Assembly: GCA_977018835.1 (NCBI GenBank) | Contig: OZ361256.1 | Coordinates: 5,952,001-6,016,000, forward strand | DNA: 64,000 nucleotides | Reading direction: 5' to 3' | Source: Minutocellus sp. GHC0000111 | Taxonomy: Eukaryota | Shown here: positions 4,400 to 44,291 of the stretch, one piece after another | Numbering within the stretch: the first letter of the stretch is position 1 | How the letters are laid out: every line of letters begins with the position of its first letter | Program-made: the position numbers and the translations under genes | The notes under the pieces: model-generated | The model's input: only the letters and a program-made list of their open reading frames with translations | What the model was told of the DNA's origin: nothing | Database searches by the model: none

Positions 4400-7000
4400 T
4401 ACTTGTTGTAGGTTGTTTTGCCAGACAAACATGCCACTGAAGATTCCTTTTGCACTCCCAGCCTTTCAAATGATACTTCTGCTGGTCAGGCATTGCATGG
4501 CATTGTCTTTCTACTGACACGTGTACATACATGTAGATCCTCCACCCACTTGACTGACCATGAGATTGATTGATTGCTGCCCCCTCCGGATGTTGTTCAC
4601 CAGAGTGTTGCAACACCTGCTTGCTTCCCCATGACATGGACTGGCTTTTGAGTGTTGCAACACCTTCTTGCTGTCCTGTCAAACTAAAAAAAGCAAACTG
4701 CCCCGATGTTGTTCTCGTCTTGTAACTTGAGGCCTCTCAGCTGGTGCTGCCTTCTACATGCTCTTCATCGATGTCCTCTCCTTCATCACTGCTGTCCTCT
4801 CCTTCTTCTTCATTGCTTTCTGCTGCCTTGGCCCTGCGTGCTTTTTTGACAATCTCCTCCAAGGCTTTGATGAGCTGTTGTCGACACTTGGCCTTGGCTC
4901 CCTCATTGACCAAGCACATCTCGAAACGAAGCCGACGTGACTCCTTGTCATCTCGCAACGAAAAGCGGACGTGACTGGTTCCTTGTCGTCATCATTCAAC
5001 GGGAACTTGGCCACCAAGGCGGCCTTCAACTCTCCTCATCAGACCTTCGCAGCACCAATGGCTCCCATCGAGGATGCACAGTTGCCGGCACCGTCGGCCA
5101 CGGGGGCTGGAACACGACAAGAGACTTTCCATCCAGCTCAGGACTCTCATCCACTTACTGTAGAGGTAAGGGTAGACTAATGCTAAACCTGATGCTATTG
5201 TCTTTCACAAGTGCACACCCGCCGAGCCACACTTCATCCTCTTCTTCCACTTCTAGAGACAATGATAGCCTGGGAAGGATCTTCGGTCACATTCCGAAGC
5301 TCACTGGACGAGAATCGTTGTCTACGGCACTCATAAAAGTATGTGAAGTATGAGCATACCAAGATCGTTCGCATCTACACATCCCCACCTCGATTCTCAG
5401 ATGCCCAACTCAGCTCTACTTGGCCTGATGAACGTGGCACCGAGCGTTCCTTCCCATGGCATGGATAAAGCAATGGCTGCTACCAATACTTCCAGTTTGA
5501 AACATTATCGCGTACACATCATGTACAGCATCTTGCCCACTCTTCCGCTCATGACAAACGGGGAATGGCGGACAGCAACATGATAGTAACCTGTGGCTGC
5601 ACGTTCCGTGGGCGAGCGACCCGACGCGCTCAATGTTTCCGGAGCAAGAGACTGCACCACTGTCTGAGCTTTCGGTACCGGCGATCGGTTCTCTCCATAA
5701 GCCCTCAACGACCCGGATAGTAATGCTGACAAGGACCAGGACCCTAACCCTATTCATCTTTGGTAAAAACGTGCCTTGTACATAGCTGCATTCAATACAA
5801 AAGGGATGTATCATCTGCAACTCTGGTAAAATTGTAGATCCTATTGAAAAATTGAAGCTATGAACTAATATATTGTCGCAAGCAGACTGAAGTGGTTGCA
5901 CTTGAAACATCTCAGGTCGCCCATTCGGCGCCAATCTCATAAGCCAGACGGGGACGGGCGCCGCTTCAGCAAAGCTTGCTCTTTTACGAACGCCGCTGCT
6001 TCCGATCTCAAACTCTTCGAGGGTGGTCGCTGAGGCATCACTAGCCTATGAAGCAGCAATCGCGATACAGCCTGTCGAGCCATCGATCCGTCACCAATTG
6101 GCTGCTCTCCGACGACGGCCTGCCGTTGAACTACCTTTTCAAATCAATTCATCGCACAGCAACGATCGCAAGGCAAAAGTAGCAGTCCCCATGTTCAAGT
6201 AATTCGTTGTGTTATAATGGCAGCCAACGACAGCAGGGTTGATGTCGGCACGGAGATCAACCTTCCCTTGAAAGCCAACTTGCGCCGCGCACATGAAAGC
6301 AAGCTCTCGAATATTACTAAAGGCCTTGTTTGTCGTCGCAATCAAGAAGGTCTGCTTGGGTAGACTGCAACATCAACCTCACATGCATGGCGTGTCCTCT
6401 GGGGAGCCCTGGCCCAAGGCAGGGTGGAGCACTGATCCTAGCCGAATGGGTTGCGAACCTGTGGCTTCTCAGGTGATCTTGGAGGCCTTGTTTGTCATCC
6501 CAAACAAGGGCTGGCCTGGCTTGGTCAAACTGAGCAACACGTCAAGTACCCCCAACGTCAAGCATGTTGCTGCTGTGTCAATGTTGTTTCCGCCTCTTGG
6601 GTCATCCCATGCTGAATCTTGTGACCTTAGTCCTTTTGTTTGTCGTTGTCAACCAGCCTTACACTTCAACAACAGGATGGTTCCCTCCAAGGAGCAATGT
6701 CGTCTCGGCCTTTCTGCTTGACACCACCAATTGCCATGATTCCGACAGATGGGGGTGGTGGAAGGAGGACAAGGTCAGCAAGAAGAGCACGGTTGGCAGC
6801 CTTCTCGAGGGTATTATTGACCTTTTTGTTGGTGAGGGCATTTTGTTTGTGTGGGGCGCATGGTGGGGATGTTGCTGTGCTCTGCCAGGAAGCAAGCTCT
6901 TCTGAAACTTTCTTTTCTCCGGAACGCAGTGTTCTACTGCATGTGTACATGTAGTTCTAGTCTGGTTTGACACACACTGATGCATTCACTGCTCATTCTT
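4400..7000. pseudogene. Decayed, CpG-eroded repeat/pseudogene-like region of unknown origin
   Basis: No long ORF. Stretches at 4400-4950 and 6350-6950 are rich in TG/CA and poor in CG, with broken protein-like fragments on the minus strand. Adjacent to the LINE. Confidence 0.35.
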
Positions 7001-7059: not shown

Positions 7060-8500
7060 CTACATCGACGCCAACTTTGGAATGAAGCAGATGGCCCAAC
7101 TTCTCCAACACCAGTATGAAGTACACCTCATCTTCGTCGACCGAATTGTTGTGGAAAATTATGACTCGATGCGGTCCCCAACAGTCTGATTTTGGTGATC
7201 CAGAAGCATATCGCGACGTCAAGATTGATCTACACATCGGGAAGGAGAAAGCCACCTTTGGCTCTACCTGCGGGGTAAAGCAAGGCGACAATCTTGCTCC
7301 CATCCTGTTCATCATGTTTATGAATTGCGTAGCGGAGAGCCTCGATGACTTGTGGGATTTTGAGCAGCCTAACCTTCAGTATGTCCCAGACGAAGAAGAA
7401 GGTAGAGCCCGAGGCCAACTCACGAAGATGCCGGTGAAGACTAAGAAGGGTGAGAGATTTTCTTTTTTCAAGTCTTCCTATGTTGACGACACCGCATTTA
7501 TGTTGTTGAACCGTGAAGATGCCATCAGAGCCACAAAACTTATCGTCTCCCATTTCAAGCGATTCGGCCTGACAGTACACACCGGTAGTAGATCCCTCGG
7601 AGAAGGCTCCAAGATAGAAGCCCTGTACATCCCACCACCTACCTAGGTAGGAAGGAACCGTACACCGAGGAGGAGCTACTGGCAGCAACTGCTGACATTG
7701 TTATCGACGACGACCGATACATATCGTACACCGATGAATTCAAATACCTCGGCAGCCTGCTTGAGAAGCATCTGAACGATATAGTGGACATAAATGCCAG
7801 AATCAAGCAAGCCAAAGGCCAATTCCAAGCGGTGAGTGACAACATCTTCACCAACAAGGATGTACCACTACCCGAGCGACTACGATACTACAATGCCCTC
7901 ACCGTCAATACAGCACTATGGGGATGCGAAAGCTGGGCGCTCAAACCATCACTGATCAAAAAGCTAGAGTCCATGCACCACAACTGCCTCCGTCAAATCG
8001 TAGGGTATAACTTCTACCGAGACGGTAAAGTCACAAATGAAGATATTAGAGCGGAAGCTCTTAGTGCCTACATGTATACGATGGAAACCAATCTAGACCT
8101 AAGGAGATGTAGATGGTTAGAGAAGGTTGCAAACATGGGAGATAACAGATTGCCTAGAAAGTTATTTGGAGCCTTCTGCCATGGAAAATCTAGACGACGC
8201 GGCAAAGCCAAAGCTACAATCCGACATGGATACCGTGACACTCTAGAGAAACTAGGCTTCGGATCTAGAGCAAACGACCTCAGTGAATGGATGCCAGCTG
8301 CCAGAGACCCAGTTCTATGGGCTGAAATAGTGGAGCTCCGACTAGGATTAGTATCCGGCACGTATACAAAGTACAAATTCCGTCAAACGACGATTTCTGA
8401 TTCTATTTTCGGTTGATTTATTCGGACAATTGCTACAGCGGATTTTACATTTAGAGATTAGGGAACTCAAGCCCAATAACCTAGGTGAGTACTCATCATC
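7060..8500 (+). mobile_element. 5'-truncated, disrupted non-LTR retrotransposon (RTE-like reverse transcriptase)
   Basis: RT motifs HLIFVD (partly deleted), ELLWKIM, GVKQGDNLAPILF, YVDD, FKYLGS, RIKQAKGQF, LWGCESW, RRCRWLEKVANMGDNRLPRKL. Frame broken by an 8-bp insertion at ~7641-7648. Short (CAT)n at ~8494-8503. Confidence 0.9.
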
Positions 8501-15791: not shown

Positions 15792-16699
15792 CATCTGGGG
15801 AAGCTGGCATCACCTGTAGCCGGATGATGGAAACCTGTGCCGTCTGCGTCTTGGACGGAACGAGGGCTTTCCCTCACCTTTTTTGGACCGAAGATGAAGA
15901 GAGTTTGCGAGCGCCGCACGATGAGCGATGAACGTGTTTCCGATGATACTCGCACATCAGCAGCCACCAATTGTGAACAAAATGCTGTAATAAACTTACC
16001 AGTATTTAGATAAAGATCTACATACATGCAGTCTGGCATTCTTCTCCATCGTTGTATCGTCCGTTGCTACATGTACAGTACAGGTGGATTCGTAGATTCA
16101 ATCATTCTAGCTAGGAACTGTCGCGATCGCGATCGCTTGCGCTGCAAAGAAACCCGGAAAATGAAACGACACGCATGCTCATTTTCCAACCCGAGGAACA
16201 ATGGCCGCGAGGCGACACGAGCCCAATTTCCAAGCACCCGAGGAACAATGACAAGAATCCAACCCCTCTCAATTACTTTGCTCTCCCCGCTGTTGCTAGC
16301 GGCGAGCAGTGTCCTGGCTTTTCAGCCGGCGATTAGTAAGGTGACATCTTCTTCGACTCTCATGTTGTCCAATCGACGGCGCGGCGCAACTAACTGGAGA
16401 GATGTGTCTCTGATGCTACCGTCGATGACTCATCGGCCGATGGCGATGGCTTGATCGACTTCCCACCTCCGCTCACCGGTCTTCAGCGGACGAAGCGTGC
16501 TATCGAATTCTACAAGCGTGCTCTCCCTGTGCTGGCGGCACATGCAAGGCAAAAAGGAAAAATCGAACTTAAGCTGTGAGACCGACCTGCTGCCAGTGAA
16601 GAAGAGGAGCAAAAGACATGGGCCGATTTGGACGAATGGGGCTCAACAACAATTGCGGAGACCATCGCAGACATGAAGGGGTTGGTCTACACACACAGC

Positions 16700-19600
16700 A
16701 GCAGCAGAGCGCCAGGGAAAAAATGCAGCTAACTGGCGTTTGTCTAACTAACCCTGCTACTAATTTGTGCGCTAATGAAATGACTTTTACTTCGAACAAC
16801 CGCATCAGAAAGAAACATTTCACGAAATTGTTCTGCGAACGACACCTTCACAGAAAGTCACAAATCACAACACTTGGCAGTCCGAGCTACTTTGTAGTGC
16901 TGCGCATATTCTTCACAGTCCACTCAACTTCTTGCTTTTATTCGGTGGATTTTGTTTTGACAGATTCAGTCTGGCTGTCGTCCGTCATGCTGCACCTTTT
17001 CCGCTTTCGCTGATGCACGCCGACCGTCCATCACATATCAACTCGTTGATACTGCCTTGCATCATCGCCATGATGTAGTTGCGTGGTATTGTATCTCTCG
17101 CCCTCCGCCGCCTCTGGCGGCATGGCTGGCGCCTTTTGGCGCGCGCGCGAAAGCATTTTCCCACACGTCACGCCAGAAACAATGTGACGTGGCCGATTTC
17201 GCTGTTTGATTTTTTTTGGCCGAGCCGACGCCGCTCTGCGGAGCAACGATGATCGATCATTCTCGCTACTGCCATTGATGGTATACCGCCTGCCTGGTCA
17301 CCCATCCACCCATCGGATCGCAACGCAACCCTATCGCCTTTATCGGACCATCCGTCGGCGCTGCCATCATCCCGCCCGTCCAGAAGGGCTGCTCGATATT
17401 AGCAGCAGTCGTCGGCCACCAAATCCAAATCCAATCCGGGGGATCATTTCAAAGTAGACCGTCTCCAGTCTGCTCAATCCAATCAAACTCCCAGCACCCA
17501 GTGCACTCAACAACGAGCTCGCCTTCTACTGCCACCATCACCTGTAACCCCTGTAGTGCTCACCGTCATCATGTGGTCCAGCGGCCGGTCGAAGTTGAAG
17601 AGGATCCGTCGGTCGGCCAACCGCGGTGCCGACGCATCGGCCCGCCACGCCAATACTGGCTGCCCTGGTTTCCTTTCTGCCGATCCGCCCACGGGAGCCC
17701 GGAAGAAGAGCAAATCGGTCGTCGGCCCCGATGGCATCGGTACCGACGGTGGTGTTGCCGACGGCGGCAACAAGGACCCGGCCCCGCCGGCGAAAGTGAG
17801 CGCTGACGGCACCAACGATGATGCAATGGAGGTTGATGCCATTGTTGCTGCTGTCGGCGTACGGTTCCTTGGGCAGATGGCAAGGGCAATCAAAACGATT
17901 GAGGCCGAACGCGACCCTGTGGACGTTGCTACAGAAGCAGAGCGACGAGATGCCCTCGTCCGCCAAATTGAGGTCACGACTGAACGCGTTGAACGCGACG
18001 AAATGATGACTGCCGAGGAGAAGAGGGCCACCGCGTCGGCACACTTCACGGCCCTTGTGGAGAGCAATCCCAACGTGAGGGCAATGGTGAGTTTAGCAAA
18101 ATAATAATATTATGCATTGCCTTTCATGTCCAATGTGCATTCATCTTGGTTTATCTAACTGTCCTTTCCTTTCATTCATGCTTTCATTCTATATGTTGTA
18201 CGTGCAGATGGCCACCAGCGCAGTGCCCTCCAAGGCGGCGCCCTCGAAGGCGGCTGCAGCATGGCCGCCAGTCCTCCCCCCTACGTATGCCTCCTCCACG
18301 TCGTCTGGCATGGTCCCTGCCGCGCTCCCGACCCAGCAGGTGTTCCGCCATTTTGACATCAAGATTGGCCAAGGAGGCACCCATCCCTCGGTTGTCCCGA
18401 AGATGAGCAGCTCGATGATACCAAGTTGCCCCCGACTACCTGCTAGCAGCACCACCATGATACCGAGCCTCGGCCTTCATCACCTCAATTCCGACCAGCG
18501 CCGTTGGTCTTCTACTGGCAACGTCCCTTCGTGTGTGCAGAAGAAGCTGGAGGACGAAGCAGCGATGTACGAGAAGGAGAACGAACGTGCCGCAATCGAG
18601 GAAGGCGGTCGGCATGGGACCTTGACGGCGTACAACCATCCCATGAGAGGCAGTGGCCAGGGGGTTATGAAAGCCCTACTTGCGCATCCTCAGTGTGGCC
18701 GGTCTATTGCTGGATGTCTTACTGGGATGGATGCTGTACAGATGCTTCGCGCATGCAAGTGGGATGCGCTAGGCGTCCAGGTTCTTGATAACGTCATTGA
18801 CTCCACCGCCATACGAGAGATGAAGACCAAGGCCGCCAAGGATGCGATCGCCGCGACCGACATCTTGACAGAGGTCCAGCACCAGACCAAGGAGACGGCT
18901 GCCTTTTTGGAGAATATTATGGCACAAATTCGGCCAACGGTCACTTCTTCGGACGGTGATAGCGACGACGACAGCGACGATGACGACGGGGGGTACGGGT
19001 TTGGGAATTGTGATGATGACGAGGATAGCGGAGCTGTGCCGCCATCACCGCCGTCCTCACCTCCGCCCTCTCACAGCCGTCGCGCTCTCGGAGACCTGAC
19101 GAACTCGTCGACCAAGCCTCCCAAGGCCGCTGCCCGCCGCCGCACCGCCGATTCCGAAATATCGAATCAAGATGCCATCATCAATGGTAAGAGGGAGCGT
19201 CGCACGAGATACAGCAACAGCTTTGACGATGATGTTCTCGCAGAGCACGGTTACTACGATCCATCGCAGCCTGAACTCAAGGAAAGTGCCGGCAAAGCTG
19301 TGGACGACTATGACTCCGATGACGAGGAGGATCACTACTCTGATGAGGAGGCCAATTTGAACTTCGATGATGAGGAGGAATACCACTCTGATGAGGAGTT
19401 CGACGCCAATGCCGATGCGGTGGCCAATTTCGATGCTCCCATGAGCACGCGGAAGGTCGAGTCCAGCAAGTACTACCTTACCGAGGATGGTAAAAGAGTA
19501 GACGTGCCCAGTTGCAGCCAACGCAAATCTGACAACCTCAGAACAGTCAACCTTCGTTCATTGATTCCAGACCGTGGAAATTTCGGAGATGGCACGGTAG

Positions 19601-20615
19601 TGGCTGAGACGGACATTGACACCACCCGCTTCGAGTTGCCCGTGATCCAAGCGGCGCATGACATGGCCAATCGTGGAGTTATATCGTTGCAACGAGCAAA
19701 ATCCGGCCATGACTACCTGTTTTCGGATCTGGTACTGGGAGGTCGAGTCGACCCAATCATCGAGGAAAACAAGGACGTCGCGGGTCCTCTACTCGCTTTG
19801 TCTTGCTGTCTTAGAGCCATCGGTGTTCTGAAAGCACGCCTTCAAATCTACTTTGGCGAAGGCAGGACGGACATACACCATGACCATCCATTTGCTACGG
19901 TGCGCCTCCTCATCAAATTGTCCGGCACGATCAAGTGGTACAAGTCGACGTCCAAGATCGATCCTGTTCTTCACGACTCTGTGGGCGACGACGAGGCGCG
20001 CGTTGTCAGCCTTGTTTGCGGCGGCGCAGAGTCCTTTGCGATGGGCAGGCTGTACTATGGCGCACCACCCACCAACGTCAACCCCCACTCGTCAGAGCCT
20101 CGATCTGATGGAGAGCCATCGGTGTCGATCATCTGCCAGCTTCCATCAGGAACGGACAAGGACGAGGCCACTGAGAAGGTGCTGAAGATGCTCACTACGC
20201 TTTTTGATGAAACCACCCTCACCACCCGCCCCGAATTCAAGCGGCAGAGCAGGGACGGTGGAGCTCCATCACAATATTTCCAATCCTCTAGGGGGTCACT
20301 GTGAACTATCTGGCTGTTATCTTGACTACCTCAGCAAGGAGGAGATCAAGAAGTGTAACGACGAGGGCTTCTTTGAGCTTAGCGGCGAGGAGAAAATCCA
20401 GGCGCTGAGGGATGCAGGCAATTGGAATGACAATCCCCAACAGGTTCTGACTTGTGGATGCGGTGTAGATTTTGACACTTTCAATGGCATCAGGATCCAT
20501 GTCGCTCGCTGGTGCAATGAAGAAGGAGTTAAGGGATACTGGAAGAAGTTGGGGGTCAAAGCATTCTCTGGCGAAGAGAAGTATCAGCACCTGCTCAAGT
20601 AAGCTAAAGTAATTT
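16700..20615 (+). mobile_element. Insertion within the ABC1K gene (unclassified element; ends not resolved)
   Basis: Lies between nearly contiguous ABC1K motifs (MKG... and VISTRVDLF) and carries its own spliced gene. No clear TIR/TSD recognised. Confidence 0.6.
17571..20602 (+). CDS. Insertion-borne protein: coiled-coil/acidic N-terminus, possible 2OG-Fe(II) dioxygenase-like domain, C-terminal CxC..H..C Zn-finger-like motif
   Basis: In-frame intron 18087-18207. LQIYFGEGRTDIHHD...VRLLIKLSG...FAMGR...PHSS...SVSIICQ. Frameshift at a G-run near 20290 links to CGCGVDFDTFNGIRIHVARWC. Confidence 0.55.
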
Positions 20616-23062
20616 CGTTATCTCTACGCGAGTTGACCTCTTTCCTCCCGCGTACACTGACAAATTGGCTCAGCTACAAGATGGTATCGAACCAATGCCT
20701 TTCGAACTCGTTGAAGGGGTCGTACGGCAGGAACTTCTTGATAGCGCCCCTTTGTCGGATTTGTTCCTTAATTTTGACAAAGAACCTCTTGGGGCTGCCA
20801 GTATTGCACAAGTCCACAAGGCTTCGCTACTCGACGGACGTATTGTCGCGGTGAAGCTGCAGCGTCCCAATGTCGAGCCGAAGTTACTAGGCGATGTAGC
20901 AAATCTGAAACGCATCAGCAAGGCCTTGGCGAAGTCTCTTCCCGTGGATTACTACACGGTGTTCTCAGAGCTTGGAGAGGCACTTATCAATGAACTTGAT
21001 TTCCTTTCAGAGGCAAGCGCAATGAGAAAGATTAGCTACGCGGTTAGTCATTGCAACGATGGAACGCCCGCCGACCCACCAGTAACCATTCCACGTCCCA
21101 TCGGCGAGCTTGTCTCCAAGAGGGTGCTCGTGATGGACTTTGTATCAGGAACTCATCTCAATAGGCTTCAAGAGACAATGAAAGAGCGTGGTATCGAGCC
21201 TGGTTCGCCCGAGGCAAAGCTTGCGGGGAGAAGAATTCTCAACAGCTTGTCCTCGGCTTTCGGTGAGCAGATTCTACTCAGAAGCAATACTTTTGCTTTC
21301 ATTTACTTTATGCAACTCACCCTTATGCATCTCCTACATCAAATGAATGACTTCAATCACCTACCAACTCAGGGCGCATGATATTCGGGGCAGGTTTTAT
21401 CCATGGAGTGAGTTTTTACCTGGCTTATGCTCGCTCGGTTTATCTACATCAACACATTTCACCCTCTCATTTTCTCGCCTTTCGTCTCCTCCTTCTTTCC
21501 ATCGTCTCCAATACCTCTACCTCTACCTCTTTATAGGATCCTCACCCAGTAAGTTTAAAAATATGCTTGTATGCTACAACTGCGATGTGTCCGTTACTTA
21601 TTTCCTATGCCAATATGCCGATAATTTGCTTGGTCGGTCTCACGTATCTTCTGCGTTAATTTATTTCTTCAACTCAACTCACATTCCAGGGCAACATATT
21701 CATCGGAGAAGGCGGCAAGGTTGCATTGATTGATTGCGGTCAGTTCAAGGCCCTACCACGCACTCAAAGAGTGCAGCTGGCAAAACTAATCTTGCAGGTG
21801 GACGAATACCAAAAGGCCGAGTGCGTGGATGATGCAAACGAGGCAAAGGCGAAACTTGCAGGTTTGATTAGAGATTTCGGCGTGAAACTTATGCCCGAAC
21901 ACGAGAACGACGATGATCTAGCGGCTGCCGTTGCCTATTCCTTTTGGGGATTCCGATAGACCTTTGCCAGGTGGATACAGCACATCGGAATTGGACGAGA
22001 AATCCCCAATCAACCTGATTGCCTCGTTTCCCCAAGAATTTGTTTTGCTTGGCAGGGCAACAGTTTTACTCAAGGGTATTGCCAAGCGCCTCGATGTTCC
22101 ATTCTCGCTTGCCGAACGTTGGTCCAAGGGATGCAAATTGACAGTAAGTGCGGCATCTGCGCCGCAGCTACCTCTCTGGGGGAAGGATGTGGTGGATGAT
22201 CGTGACTCCGGGGGAACATCATCAGCCTCGAGTAGATCTAGCATGAAGCAATCTCAACAAGGAGGTGGAAGAGCCGCCGACAAGGACAATAAGATCCAAT
22301 TTCGCCAAGTTGCGCGTTTCTTTAAGGCCTGGGGCAAGGGCAAGGCACGTCGCTTCATCGAACGTGTGGTGAAGAAATTGCCAGAAGGCCTGCGGGCCAA
22401 AGTCTTGGAAGCGGAGTTGCGACGGATGGAGAGGGAGGATGCTGCGAAGTAGATCTAGCTAGAGTTTAGCTAGAAGCTATTATTATTATTAATCATTATG
22501 TATGTCTATGCTACATATATATATAGCTAGAGTCAGATTCATGCTCCGGAATCCGGACGACCTACCTGCTGCATCGAGGTTGAGTCGGTGAACTTGGTGG
22601 CGCGCGCGCGCCGGCGCGCGGCGACTTACACTACCAATGACCCATAAATTGGAGAACATCCGAAGCAGCACAAGAAGACATTCGAAATCGGAAGATTTGC
22701 TGGCGTGCGCGCTTTCAGCTCCGTTGAGCCGTTGAGCGCGAGCGTTGGCCGACCTTCCCTCAAAGCAACACTAAGTACTGCAATACTACGTAGTACCTCC
22801 CTTGCGCTTGTATCGTCGATGAAGAGAAAATTACTTACGTCGATTCGGCCGAACCGCTTGAATTTCATCGGTCGGCTCATCTTCTCTTCAATCTGCTTGC
22901 TTCCAAGCGAACACCTGAATCGAATCGGCCGGATCGAATCGAATCATCGGATCGAAGCAGTGAAAAGAAATTCTCTCCTGATTTTAGGATTGCTTCTTTG
23001 GTTTTGACTCTGCTCTTCATCAGTCACTACTCAATAATCACTCATCGCGAACACTCAACATT

Positions 23063-40352: not shown

Positions 40353-40610
40353 ATCTATCAAGTGTGATCAATTGCGTCGTTAGCAATTGTAGCAAATTGT
40401 CCTTGAATGCCGTGCAATCGATCGATGCACGTCCGGGGATGGGAGATACGAGATGAGAGGTCGGTCGGGAGATGTTGACGAGTTGCGACGCTACGTACGT
40501 ACACTTTACGTACATACGCACGATACGTAGAGTCTACGTATCTGATGACCCCGCGCGCGGAGGCCAGGCATCGACGAGGGGCCTAAATAACAAATCAGGG
40601 ATCAGCCGTA

Positions 40611-43600
40611 CCTTTCGGTTTCAGAGGATTTGTAGAGGGTATACCAATAACCCCTAAAAAAGGTCATTCTTGCACCCATTTCTCATTTCCCACCACACGT
40701 GTTTTGTTAGTCGATGTTCTCTTCGGGAGGAACGCAAATGCTCCTCAACTCGTGGACATCTCTACTGGACCTGCTCATTCAGTAGGTTGCCACCGACCAG
40801 TAGTATCCACTGAATTCGCAGGTCCAGTAGATTCTGGCAGGAACACATGTATTTTTTGGTCCCCCGCACACCCTCGCCGACCGACCGCACAACCAACCCG
40901 CAAATTTTGTGACGATGACGACGACCAACCAGACCACGCCCAAAAAATACAAACGCAGCAGAACTTCGTTCTCAGGGAGCAAGAGAGGCAACACCAAGGC
41001 ATCCAGGAAGGCGGCAAAGGCGGCAGCTGAGCCGAAAACACCATCGCCGAGCGCAAACACGTCGAAGAAGCGGCCACGGTCAAATTCGCCCCCGCCAAAC
41101 CGTCACCGTCGTCGGCGAAGAAGAAGAGGACGGCCCCTCCTCCTATCCCCATGGCCTTTCTCCTTGCAGCAGATGTCATTCGAAGGGCTGGTAAGGATCT
41201 GTGGTGGAGAGTAACCCCCGATTCCTGCGCGGCAAAGACGACATTTGTGTTGGTTCTCGCGGCAGAAATGGGAAGACGTCCTCCCCCCCTGCTTTCATCG
41301 AGGCCGACTTGTTGCGTTCCAAGTCCGTCGGTGGAGGAAAGTATGAGCTACAGTACAACGAGGAAAAATGGAAGGATATGCAGCAACATCTCAAGGAGCA
41401 TTGTAGTTTGAAGTTGCACTTGTCGACGTGTCGGCCGAGAGGGAAGACAAGACGCAGGGCGCTTTGTGTTTGTGCTCACAGGTTGCGTAAAAAGAAGGAG
41501 GACAACCACCACCCGAAATTCTCTGGACCGGAGGGACAGAAGGTGCACGAGAAAAGAAATCCCGATGAAGTTCTGTTCTCTGGGCGCTCCTCGACTGTCT
41601 TAGCTACTAAGCTAGGTGAGAGGTTGTCAGCTCACAGAAAGGAGGTGCAGTCAGCGCATTGCGAAGCAAGAGCAAAATCACTAGTCGACGAGGCCAAGAA
41701 ACTGGGTTGGATGCCAGCAAGTCTCCTCAGCATGCTGAAGGGAACTGGTGATGCTTCCGCCACTGAAGCAGCTGCAGCCTCCCCCAATGATGAAGGTTTA
41801 GGAGGAGCCGATACTTCCGTTGTCTGTGCCACCTCCAGTGACATTGATGAACAGGTAAAGGTCGCTCTCGGCCTCGACTTTGTTGTTCGGATGGCCAACG
41901 ACGATGACATGCTCCGTCCTCCTCGTCCCAATGCAACCGTCACCGAACCAACACCAATCAGAAAAGAAAAGCAGGCGAATGAAAGAATGCGGTTCAGCGC
42001 CGTGGCTCTCGCGGATTGGTGGGGATGCGGCGACCCAACAACTCGCACGCATGAAGACCGGCAACAAATTGCAACTGCCGCGTGTCGGCAAGTTGCGTGC
42101 GATCACGGTTATGCCAAGTCAACCGGTGGTTCTCAGCTTTACAAGTGGAGAGACCAGCTCTACAAAAGCCTTACTGATGGCATCAGCAATCCCATCGGCA
42201 GAAAGGAGGTTCGTGGAAGGAAGGCATGCACGGACATGATCGAGGAGAAGGAGCCAGGATGTCTCCGCGAGCTGTGTCGGCATGCTGCTCGGATGAAGGG
42301 TGCGATGGCAACCTTTAAGGAGCTAGCTGACTGTGTGAGCGCAAAATCAGCTACTCCAGATGAAGATAGGCTGACAATTTGTCTCCATCGTCTTCAGCTT
42401 TTTCGCTGGTGGAAAAAGCAAGGCGGTAAGGAGAAGTCGTCGATCGAGAAGCCGAGGCTCACCCCCGAACATTGCAGGAAGCGACTTGATTGGATCGAAA
42501 AGTGGGAGGACATTACGACCGATCCCAACATTCCTGTAGCGTGTCTTGATGAAAAGTGATTTTACACTACTACTCGGCGACGAAAGATCAAGATGTTGCC
42601 ACTTTCTGACGAAGAACTAAGTAGTCCGAACCTCGCGTCTATCCATGCTTCCGAGGCAAGCCCGAAAATTCGATCCAGAAGACACCCTGTCAAAGTTATG
42701 CATCTTGGAGTTGTTGGCCGACCAATGAAGGATGAAACCAAAGACGTTGATTTCAATGGGCGCATCATGATCAAGAGAGTCGCCAGGGAGCAGAAGGTGG
42801 AAAAGCTTACGCGTAATCAGAATTTCTCTCCAGATGCTAAGGTCAACGATGCGCTAAAAAATGACAAAGATTGGCGATTGGCGCGAAATTTACGACGAGA
42901 ATGCTGACATGACCGCCGGCCATCTTTGCGACCACATTGCCGAAATCTACGGCCTTTCTGAGTTTGTTACAGAGCGATTGGAACTTCAATACGAGGACTA
43001 TAAATCCGACGGTCAGGCAAAAAGTCGCAAGCATGCCGCTGTTGGCTACAATCAAAAGATCTCGAGTCTCAAGCGACACACTCCTGATAGCAATGGAGAG
43101 AAGGTGAAGGTTGAGATCGACGACCTTGAGCTCGGGGTGCGGTATCAACGGGGCGATAAGGTTACCAAGGACTGTAGCTGCGACTCCAAATGGATGTTGG
43201 AGACTATGAATGAGGTCGGGAAGGCGATTCGAGACGCACATCATTGGGTGAAGTGGGATCCACAAAATATTCAGGAGTCTGATGTTACATGTCTTATGAT
43301 GGACAATGCCGGTGGTCATGGGTCCAATGAAGCAGTTGAGAAGTACACCGAGGACCTCAAAAACAAATATAAGATTGAGATAATCCAGCAGGTTCCTCGG
43401 TCGCCCGAGACAAATGTTCTTGATCTCGGCATCTGGATGTCTTTGCAGTCGGCCGTCGAAAAGGAGCATCGCGGTCAGAAGAATGATGCGAATGCTCTTG
43501 ACAAGACTGTGATGAAAGTATGGGCCAATGTCGCATCAAAAGAGGCCTTTCTCAATGTATTTGGAAAACTTCCAGTGATATATAACAACATCAAGAGAAG

Positions 43601-44104
43601 TCGTGGCGGTAACAATCTTGTGGAGACCAGACGGGGAAAGGCTGTTCTCTCGCAAAAATTGCCGAGGAAGAAGCTGAAGAGGATGGTGAACCACTCTGGC
43701 CAATTGATGCTCCCGGCGAAGATGATGACATTGAGGACGACATAGATGAAAATGATGAAGACTATGGAGTCATTGATTTGCTATAACTTATCATAGCATG
43801 TCCATTTCTATTCATTACATTTTGATTTGGTGCTTCCAAAAATGTGTATTTTTTCCCGGGGTGAGGAATGCAAATGTCGAAAAAAATCATCACATAATGT
43901 ACATTTATTGGTTCTGGTGCACAATATCTCTCGACTATATGTAGAAGTTGGTGACCATAACTTGGTTCTTGCCCCGACTTCCATCTTGGCCGTCATTTAT
44001 TCCTCGGAGTTAGAAAAAGTGAGAGCTTGGATTTTTGGTCTGGTGTGGTCGTGTTTCTAATACGTCATCATCACGTCACTTTCAAATCCTCTGAACTCGA
44101 AAGG
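40611..44104 (+). mobile_element. Full-length Tc1/mariner-superfamily DD39D DNA transposon (3494 bp) with an inactivated transposase
   Basis: 22-bp TIRs CCTTTCGGTTTCAGAGGATTTG (40611-40632) and CAAATCCTCTGAACTCGAAAGG (44083-44104), 2 mismatches. TA on both sides (40609-40610, 44105-44106). Confidence 0.95.
40915..43790 (+). pseudogene. DD39D transposase pseudogene
   Basis: LDEK*F (W codon read as TGA at 42557-42559), KVMHLGVVGRP, MMDNAGGH...QVPRSPETNVLDLGIW with exactly 39 residues between the 2nd and 3rd Asp, GGNN. Frameshifts near 41100-41200, 42860 and 43710. Confidence 0.9.
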
Positions 44105-44291
44105 TACTTCTAGGTCCTACGTAGTAGGCAAGGAGAAAGTCATCACCACAACATCCTCAAGAGAACTAGCCAGGAGTAGCCCACTAGCCTAGCTAGACTA
44201 GTACGTGAAGTAGTCGGACGAGGATCAAAGGTACCGCTTGGCCATTTGACGTGGCCATTTGACTTACGATCGTAGTCTCCCCCGAGCAAAC

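Follow-up and report, generated by a model that had tools for sequence, protein, structure and literature searches.

A window of 64,000 nt from Minutocellus sp. GHC0000111 (contig OZ361256.1) carries a broken allele of a gene recognised by Pfam (PF03109) and by its best matches as a diatom ABC1 kinase (ABC1K). Exon 1 of this allele (16248..16680, plus strand) is 32 nt longer than in intact alleles, contains frameshifts and an in-frame stop, and is held apart from exon 2 (20617..21267, plus strand) by 3.9 kb. The sequence absent from the intact allele spans 16681..20625 (plus strand), and within it the left end of a multi-copy element lies at about 16793. A patch devoid of RTAY, i.e., of TA steps with a purine on the 5′ side and a pyrimidine on the 3′ side, extends without strand assignment over 16082..16905. 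It covers the promoter, exon 1, 112 bp of repeat-rich DNA and the first ~110 bp of the multi-copy element end. The body of the insertion is not RTAY-depleted, and exon 2, which serves as an internal control, keeps seven RTAY sites and has no gaps relative to the intact allele.

The original prediction had counted about 22 TA dinucleotides and no RTAY in 16082-16905, and a recount of the window sequence gives 22 and 0. It had also placed the end of the patch just inside the insertion, in agreement with a patch that stops ~110 bp into the element, although sequence non-homologous to the intact allele begins already at 16681. In a scan of the whole window, the gap between 16078 and 16906 is the second longest after 41811-42989. 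With 657 of the 2166 TA steps in the window (30%) lying in RTAY, a fixed test gives P = 3.5e-4 for none among 22, while shuffling yields a longest RTAY-free run of at least 22 TA with P = 0.20 and two such runs with P = 0.018. Taken alone, the count for a patch picked post hoc is only suggestive; it is the comparison with intact alleles and transposase copies that establishes the feature as real.

Two haplotypes are present in run X1 between ~16060 and ~21230. Haplotype A is the window allele, with 0-1 differences and no gaps over exon 1 at a depth of ~96, and haplotype B is intact, with 16680 joined to 20626 without the 3.9 kb at a depth of ~73. X1 may be the window's own source sample and does not count as independent support for the window allele; X5, from a different study, also carries the insertion allele. 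In the RNA runs X6 and X7, exons 1 and 2 are covered only by the intact allele, and contigs also match the gene of the insertion; contigs of this kind cannot show absence, and silence of the broken allele is not claimed. No repeat copy of exon 1 was found within the 64-kb window, and the exon appears to be single-copy. A metagenome scan returned 20 loci, none of which is the allele of the window species (best protein identity 76%). Eight of them have an exon-1-like stretch with 0-3 RTAY each and at least one in seven of the eight, which shows only that RTAY is ordinary there.

Substitutions and micro-insertions in exon 1

Four runs were aligned to 16030-16720 and the contexts of the substitutions were classified, the counts below referring to the 40 of 59 substitution rows and 12 of 44 gap rows that were listed. 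At least 11 exon 1 substitutions distinguish the window from what is found in three or all four runs, and five of the 11 are TA>TG/CA. Two of these five lie on the plus strand in RTAY as plain substitutions: ATAT>ACAT at 16615..16618 (base 16617; Ile>Thr), where all four runs have T, and the synonymous GTAC>GTGC at 16529..16532 (base 16531), which differs in three of the four runs and may be an older polymorphism because X20 is identical to the window there. The third is the loss of RTAY at a Tyr codon (16541-44, plus strand), found in all four runs and aligned in two ways. The remaining two are synonymous plus-strand changes at TA outside RTAY, namely TTAC>TTGC at 16278..16281 (base 16280; all four runs) and TTAC>TCAC at 16474 (among the listed rows).

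By a hand tally, intact exon 1 has three RTAY, all of which are lost in the window, six YTAY, of which two are lost, and two YTAR, of which none is lost. Two of the RTAY losses are firm (four of four runs), and one is found in three of four. At the local background rate, the loss of three out of three has a chance of 2.6e-5, and that of the two firm sites, calculated by hand at the same rate, of ~9e-4. Alignment to intact alleles, that of the other haplotype included, finds TA>TG/CA at RTAY sites among the differences, and intact exon 1, rather than being equally RTAY-free, carries such sites.

Exon 1 is covered by 11 of the 12 proteins in the ABC1 kinase cluster; each of the 11 is in frame and has Tyr and Ile-Trp at the variant positions of the window. 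The derivation of the motif KTW from KIW (AAG ATA TGG to AAG ACA TGG), proposed from the window alone, is therefore borne out both by the T at 16617 in four of four runs and by Ile-Trp in 11 of 11 intact proteins. For the stretch GCA CATGC AAG, a TA duplication mutated twice had been suggested. A CA duplication with one ATAC>ATGC is the simpler reading and perhaps the better one; the aligner gave both (16541 and 16544).

The most conspicuous feature of the exon is its added length. Relative to intact alleles, it has gained 32 nt in nine gaps (16364-16404 and 16543-16583) with no net loss, a figure matched by the 20 + 12 gap letters that the X17 and X1 records add up to. Plain tandem duplication of 2-5 nt accounts for eight of the nine gaps, of which two are compound, and the ninth (+5 at 16364) could have been reached by a duplication, then an RTAY change, then another duplication. 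The first cluster (16364..16404, plus strand) consists of +5, +7, +4 and +4 nt, the last three of which resolve into tandem duplications; the second (16541..16583, plus strand) consists of tandem duplications of +2, +2, +2, +2 and +4 nt and includes the Tyr codon at which RTAY was lost. Nine gaps in the 433 nt of exon 1 versus none in the 636 nt of exon 2 correspond to P = 2.8e-4, and no other local anomaly of the patch is as strong as this series of short tandem duplications, which the original prediction does not mention. A TA borders just one of the nine insertions; hence, the two signatures are linked by co-location and not by shared sites. Without the intact allele as the reference, the patch does not stand out by its overall density of tandem repeats. 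The clusters are 178 bp apart (16385 and 16563) and a repeat-rich stretch lies at 16685-16770, which could reflect nucleosome-scale spacing, but the points are too few to carry such a model.

At the insertion junction, 23 nt of coding sequence are missing from the window; a search did not recover the piece, and the one degenerate match, at 18352, looks like chance. The junction itself (16680/20626) falls at a conserved ABC1K motif, F-Y-V-K-T/S-G-Q-V, which seems to be especially prone to intron or insert polymorphism: past it, most cluster proteins are uninterrupted, X1, X14 and X17 each have a different sequence, and the window is without this 23-nt piece. Further to the right (21230-22600), X1 is represented by one contig at approximately the summed depth of both haplotypes and without gaps relative to the window; the heterozygous block is limited to ~16060-21230. 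The last exon of the window is frameshifted near 21935, and both haplotypes may share this defect through loss of heterozygosity.

The mutation spectrum of the transposase copies

The longest RTAY gap of the window (41811-42989) sits inside a 3.5-kb DNA transposon with 25-nt inverted ends (40608..44107, plus strand), where it surrounds the centre of the element and marks its strongest RTAY loss. The transposon protein has no Pfam match, and from its motifs the element is presumably Tc1/IS630-like. Its transposase was compared with 23 close proteins (94-99% identical), with four more distant ones as the outgroup. Within 41811-42989, 165 of the 189 cells in which Tyr follows a purine have changed to Cys, His or Arg, as against 10 of 98 after a pyrimidine, and in each of the 11 core columns, Tyr is present in one or more of the outgroup proteins. 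Expressed as unambiguous single-base changes per strand-site in the 23 copies and the window, the rates are 170/411 for RTAY, 40/293 for YTAY, 11/172 for RTAR and 0/91 for YTAR. In the same spectrum, the other classes are low: 20/5512 for non-TA A>G, 7/1610 for CpG, 15/4130 for other G>A and at most 0.001 for transversions.

Over the transposase copies as a whole, 278 TA-type changes in 1571 opportunities stand against 23 in 9328 for non-TA A>G, with the other classes at 0.6% or less (G>A/C>T: 15/2385 at CpG and 20/7055 elsewhere). The RTAY change peaks in the middle of the element (170/411 versus 27/198 downstream). No two of the 13 near-complete copies share a pattern, and the full set of four Cys/His combinations occurs in 31 of 54 column pairs, which means that the changes recur independently between copies. 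The occurrence of both Cys and His at the same Tyr columns, as well as of T>C at 16617 and A>G at 16531 in ABC1K, places the changes on both strands. The process shown by these comparisons is an A:T>G:C change at TpA that affects both strands and follows the order RTAY > YTAY > RTAR > YTAR (none); in the transposase copies, it exceeds other changes by about 100-fold.

Insertions accompany the substitutions here, too. Four in-frame insertions are private to the window's transposase copy. A further 16 occur in the other copies, 13 of them compatible with a tandem duplication (16% expected by chance), as against four apparent deletions. Insertion-biased tandem duplications thus occur in the transposase copies and in ABC1K exon 1 in the same places as TA loss, so that both signatures of the exon recur in the transposon family.

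Among the full-length transposase relatives of 852 amino acids (aa), P0136, P0162 and P0166 likewise show His or Cys at some positions that are Tyr in others, which suggests that older hits became fixed in apparently intact lineages. A third RTAY-free gap (4527-5339; observed/expected 0.32 for TpA and 0.60 for CpG) lies in degenerate non-coding DNA upstream of a remnant of a long interspersed nuclear element. A frameshifted reverse transcriptase remnant of the non-long-terminal-repeat type (7086-8416; RVT_1, E 1e-7) retains many RTAY sites. Motifs resembling TACATGTA were seen by eye, uncounted, in intergenic DNA at 4522, 6945, 7020, 8676, 8726 and 16069.

Origin and targeting of the damage

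The patch is probably best understood as a scar on one ABC1K allele, left by what is likely the same host TpA hypermutator that acts on the nearby transposon family. Its targeting would be guided by chromatin, through short silent chromosomal domains, and not by sequence homology, since exon 1 appears to be single-copy and the intact allele on the other haplotype was spared. Such a domain may have arisen once the allele had been killed by the 3.9-kb insertion, its nucleation site perhaps being the multi-copy end of the element near 16793, and it would have been bounded on the left by the neighbouring gene, which we take from its sequence to encode a peroxiredoxin, and on the right by the element's own gene. 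The scar fills the gap between these two genes, is one-sided and is centred on host DNA. As to the chemistry, adenine deamination to inosine is the most likely route and about evenly balanced against all others together, among which thymine oxidation and the remaining possibilities have equal and distinctly smaller shares. Excision of the damaged bases would leave close nicks on opposite strands, and their fill-in followed by end-joining could give rise to duplications of 2-5 nt.

Several points weigh against this reading. The origin of the duplications from nicks at TA is weakened by the single insertion out of nine that abuts a TA, and neither the body of the insertion nor its right flank shows mutation. 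For ABC1K, the substitutions are few and drawn from the listed rows only; in the comparison that yielded the two haplotypes, a further 65 substitution and 25 gap rows lay beyond the listing. Six of the listed window-specific exon 1 substitutions are not of the TA type, three of them being C:G>A:T, and of the five TA changes, three leave the protein unaltered and may be older than the insertion. The exon 2 alleles also differ, without polarity, at TA versus TG/CA, six one way and two the other (38 rows). Neither the promoter, which is variable among intact alleles, nor 16681-16905, which has no counterpart, can be polarised. The single-copy status of exon 1 rests on two X1 contigs whose depths sum to that of the flank. 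In the case of the transposase, the evidence consists of proteins only (15 of the 275 members of the largest cluster); its cells are not fully independent, and the ancestral Tyr is partly inferred from the copies themselves.

The alternative that fares best, even so an unlikely one, is that of the original prediction, in which the mutator would move from the insertion into host sequence; such leakage out of a hypermutated repeat would resemble repeat-induced point mutation. The patch does adjoin and include the multi-copy left end, where the window copy carries +2 nt (16842), and in the transposon, RTAY loss is highest mid-element and fades toward the ends. What stands of the proposal is the action on host sequence. 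Spread from the insertion does not agree with its body, which past 16905 has long open frames and keeps 35 RTAY in 3711 bp, a normal density compared with 10.3 per kb window-wide, nor with exon 2 on the clean right flank; moreover, the damage reaches its highest density outside the element, 200-450 bp from its end.

Another explanation is suggested by the gene inside the insertion (17403..20304, plus strand), whose intron at 18086-18206 is spliced out in RNA contigs. For its C-terminal domain (19540-20250), the representative library contains four further relatives, and an HxD...H triad (H113, D115, H183) is invariant in all five aligned sequences. The predicted model of the domain has a mean confidence (pLDDT) of 80, with two of five models confident, and a Foldseek search matched it to PHD2 (E 1.8e-7; template modelling (TM) score ~0.4) as well as to viral AlkB-like and other oxygenases. 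The domain is thus a predicted 2-oxoglutarate/Fe(II) (2OG-Fe(II)) dioxygenase with a double-stranded beta-helix fold. After the distal His, the five sequences share a conserved S-x-S strand and have no invariant Arg. A viral relative of the protein was searched for and not found, and no transposase was recognised in the insertion. The homologue P0183 (923 aa) runs ~200 residues further in frame into a Cys/His-rich tail, the counterpart of which is found at 20320-20600 in another frame; the window copy thus seems to have undergone an internal deletion.

A TET/JBP-like enzyme, possibly this one, might then oxidise T in TpA, with mispairing producing T>C and two-strand excision producing duplications. 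Sequence comparison cannot separate A>G from T>C on the opposite strand, and in dinoflagellates 5-hydroxymethyluracil made by TET/JBP is tied to transposon silencing and favours TA and TC, according to the available part of the source (PMC11572971). Nevertheless, the fold matches are generic (PHD2 and AlkB-type, TM 0.35-0.45), with no TET/JBP among the structural matches listed; the element itself was spared; and the signature is also present 25 kb away and in many transposon copies. Thymine oxidation of this kind is accordingly a doubtful alternative, somewhat less plausible than outward spread.

The scar of a host hypermutator can also be given a wider setting. It is conceivable, if rather improbable, that a homology-independent, allele-specific diatom defence edits TpA and makes staggered breaks, with the dioxygenase of the insertion acting as a counter-defence that removes the targeting mark. 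Micro-duplications would then frameshift the content of small silenced domains and destroy host alleles beside insertions. The protective role of the dioxygenase in this scheme is speculation by analogy with fungal transposons, which carry TET/JBP dioxygenases thought to aid escape from silencing (PMC12730594, seen in part).

Neutral decay of a dead allele combined with a chance RTAY gap has a low probability. The post hoc P of 0.20, the mere three RTAY of the intact exon and the six non-TA substitutions speak for it, but exon 2 of the same dead allele has no gaps and keeps its RTAY sites, all nine exon 1 insertions occurred with no net loss, and the ranking of flanks matches the transposase spectrum. 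Still less likely is a single error-prone repair episode at the insertion, with a polymerase-eta-like A>G at WA and slippage, or repeated excision footprints. The damage is indeed one-sided and clustered by the insertion, where 23 nt are missing. However, non-TA A>G, including that at AA, does not rise above background (23/9328), the duplicated units range between 2 and 5 nt and have no fixed target, and the signatures recur in transposase copies far from the ends. An assembly or sequencing artefact is scarcely credible: X1 may be the source sample, but its contigs match exon 1 at a depth of ~96 with 0-1 substitutions and no gaps, and X5 has the insertion allele as well. N6-methyladenine of the ApT type was rejected because its motif does not fit GTAC, and a limited mutagenic effect is reported for it in the part of the source available (PMC12695648).

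Comparison with known systems

If the hypermutator scar is read correctly, it bears on several questions. Within the literature searched, a natural DNA hypermutator of the A:T>G:C type has been published for one unrelated alga, and the quantitative flank rule is a constraint that any candidate enzyme must reproduce. The micro-duplications may be a second signature, pointing to strand breaks downstream of the lesion, and a scarred and a spared allele in one sample form a natural control, arguing for chromatin-guided over homology-guided targeting. If the process is general, insertions may irreversibly kill host alleles in diploid phytoplankton by this route, and it could provide a lead to a natural double-stranded DNA adenine editor.

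The classical point of reference is repeat-induced point mutation (RIP), a fungal C>T process that acts at dinucleotides on both strands, makes TpA, needs a duplicate and can reach neighbouring DNA. The process described here resembles RIP in its dinucleotide-specific, two-strand transitions that degrade transposon copies independently. Unlike RIP, it destroys TpA, spares CpG in the transposon family (7/1610) and hit an apparently single-copy exon. RIP itself was rejected as an explanation, since G>A/C>T changes in the transposase copies are rare at CpG and elsewhere alike; in the consulted part of PMC9998398, it is mentioned only for fungi.

For the duplications, the nearest parallel is experimental. 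Staggered nicks on opposite strands made by Cas9 nickases in mouse embryonic stem cells lead, through classical non-homologous end joining, to tandem duplications (PMC5730883, in part). Both sets are insertion-only direct repeats of adjacent sequence, sometimes nested, whereas those in Minutocellus are natural, 2-5 nt long and clustered. The insertion, in turn, recalls the fungal transposons with TET/JBP enzymes as an element that has an HxD...H dioxygenase-fold gene and escaped damage, and differs from them, so far as the partial source goes (PMC12730594), in a protein without the invariant Arg and in having no recognised transposase.

The closest relative is found in Bigelowiella natans, where integrated DNA of nucleocytoplasmic large DNA viruses (NCLDV) as well as virophages undergoes de novo A>G/T>C hypermutation at TpA only, at an ongoing rate ~1000-fold over background; an ADAT2/3-like deaminase is the proposed, unproven enzyme (Mettrop et al., bioRxiv 10.64898/2026.01.13.699255, available in part). 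The main text of that preprint has no mention of diatom, flanking, context, tandem or host gene; data on flanks or indels may be contained in its Tables S2 and S3. No description of TpA hypermutation in a diatom was found in the literature searched, which left out most subscription journals. Common to both systems are local A>G/T>C changes confined to TpA on both strands, targets that need not be repeated (the NCLDV region is single-copy there) and TpA depletion in transposase-type genes. The rates in B. natans were measured de novo, while those given above are read from sequence comparison only, and the domains are of a different size, 25-186 kb in B. natans versus ~1 kb here. The targets in B. 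natans are viral or foreign; here, they are a transposon, likewise foreign, and ABC1K exon 1, a host sequence beside an insertion. Judged by these sequence comparisons, the process works like the TpA hypermutation of B. natans, to which it apparently adds a diatom, a flank rule, co-located short tandem duplications and, as a target, one allele of an apparently single-copy host gene.

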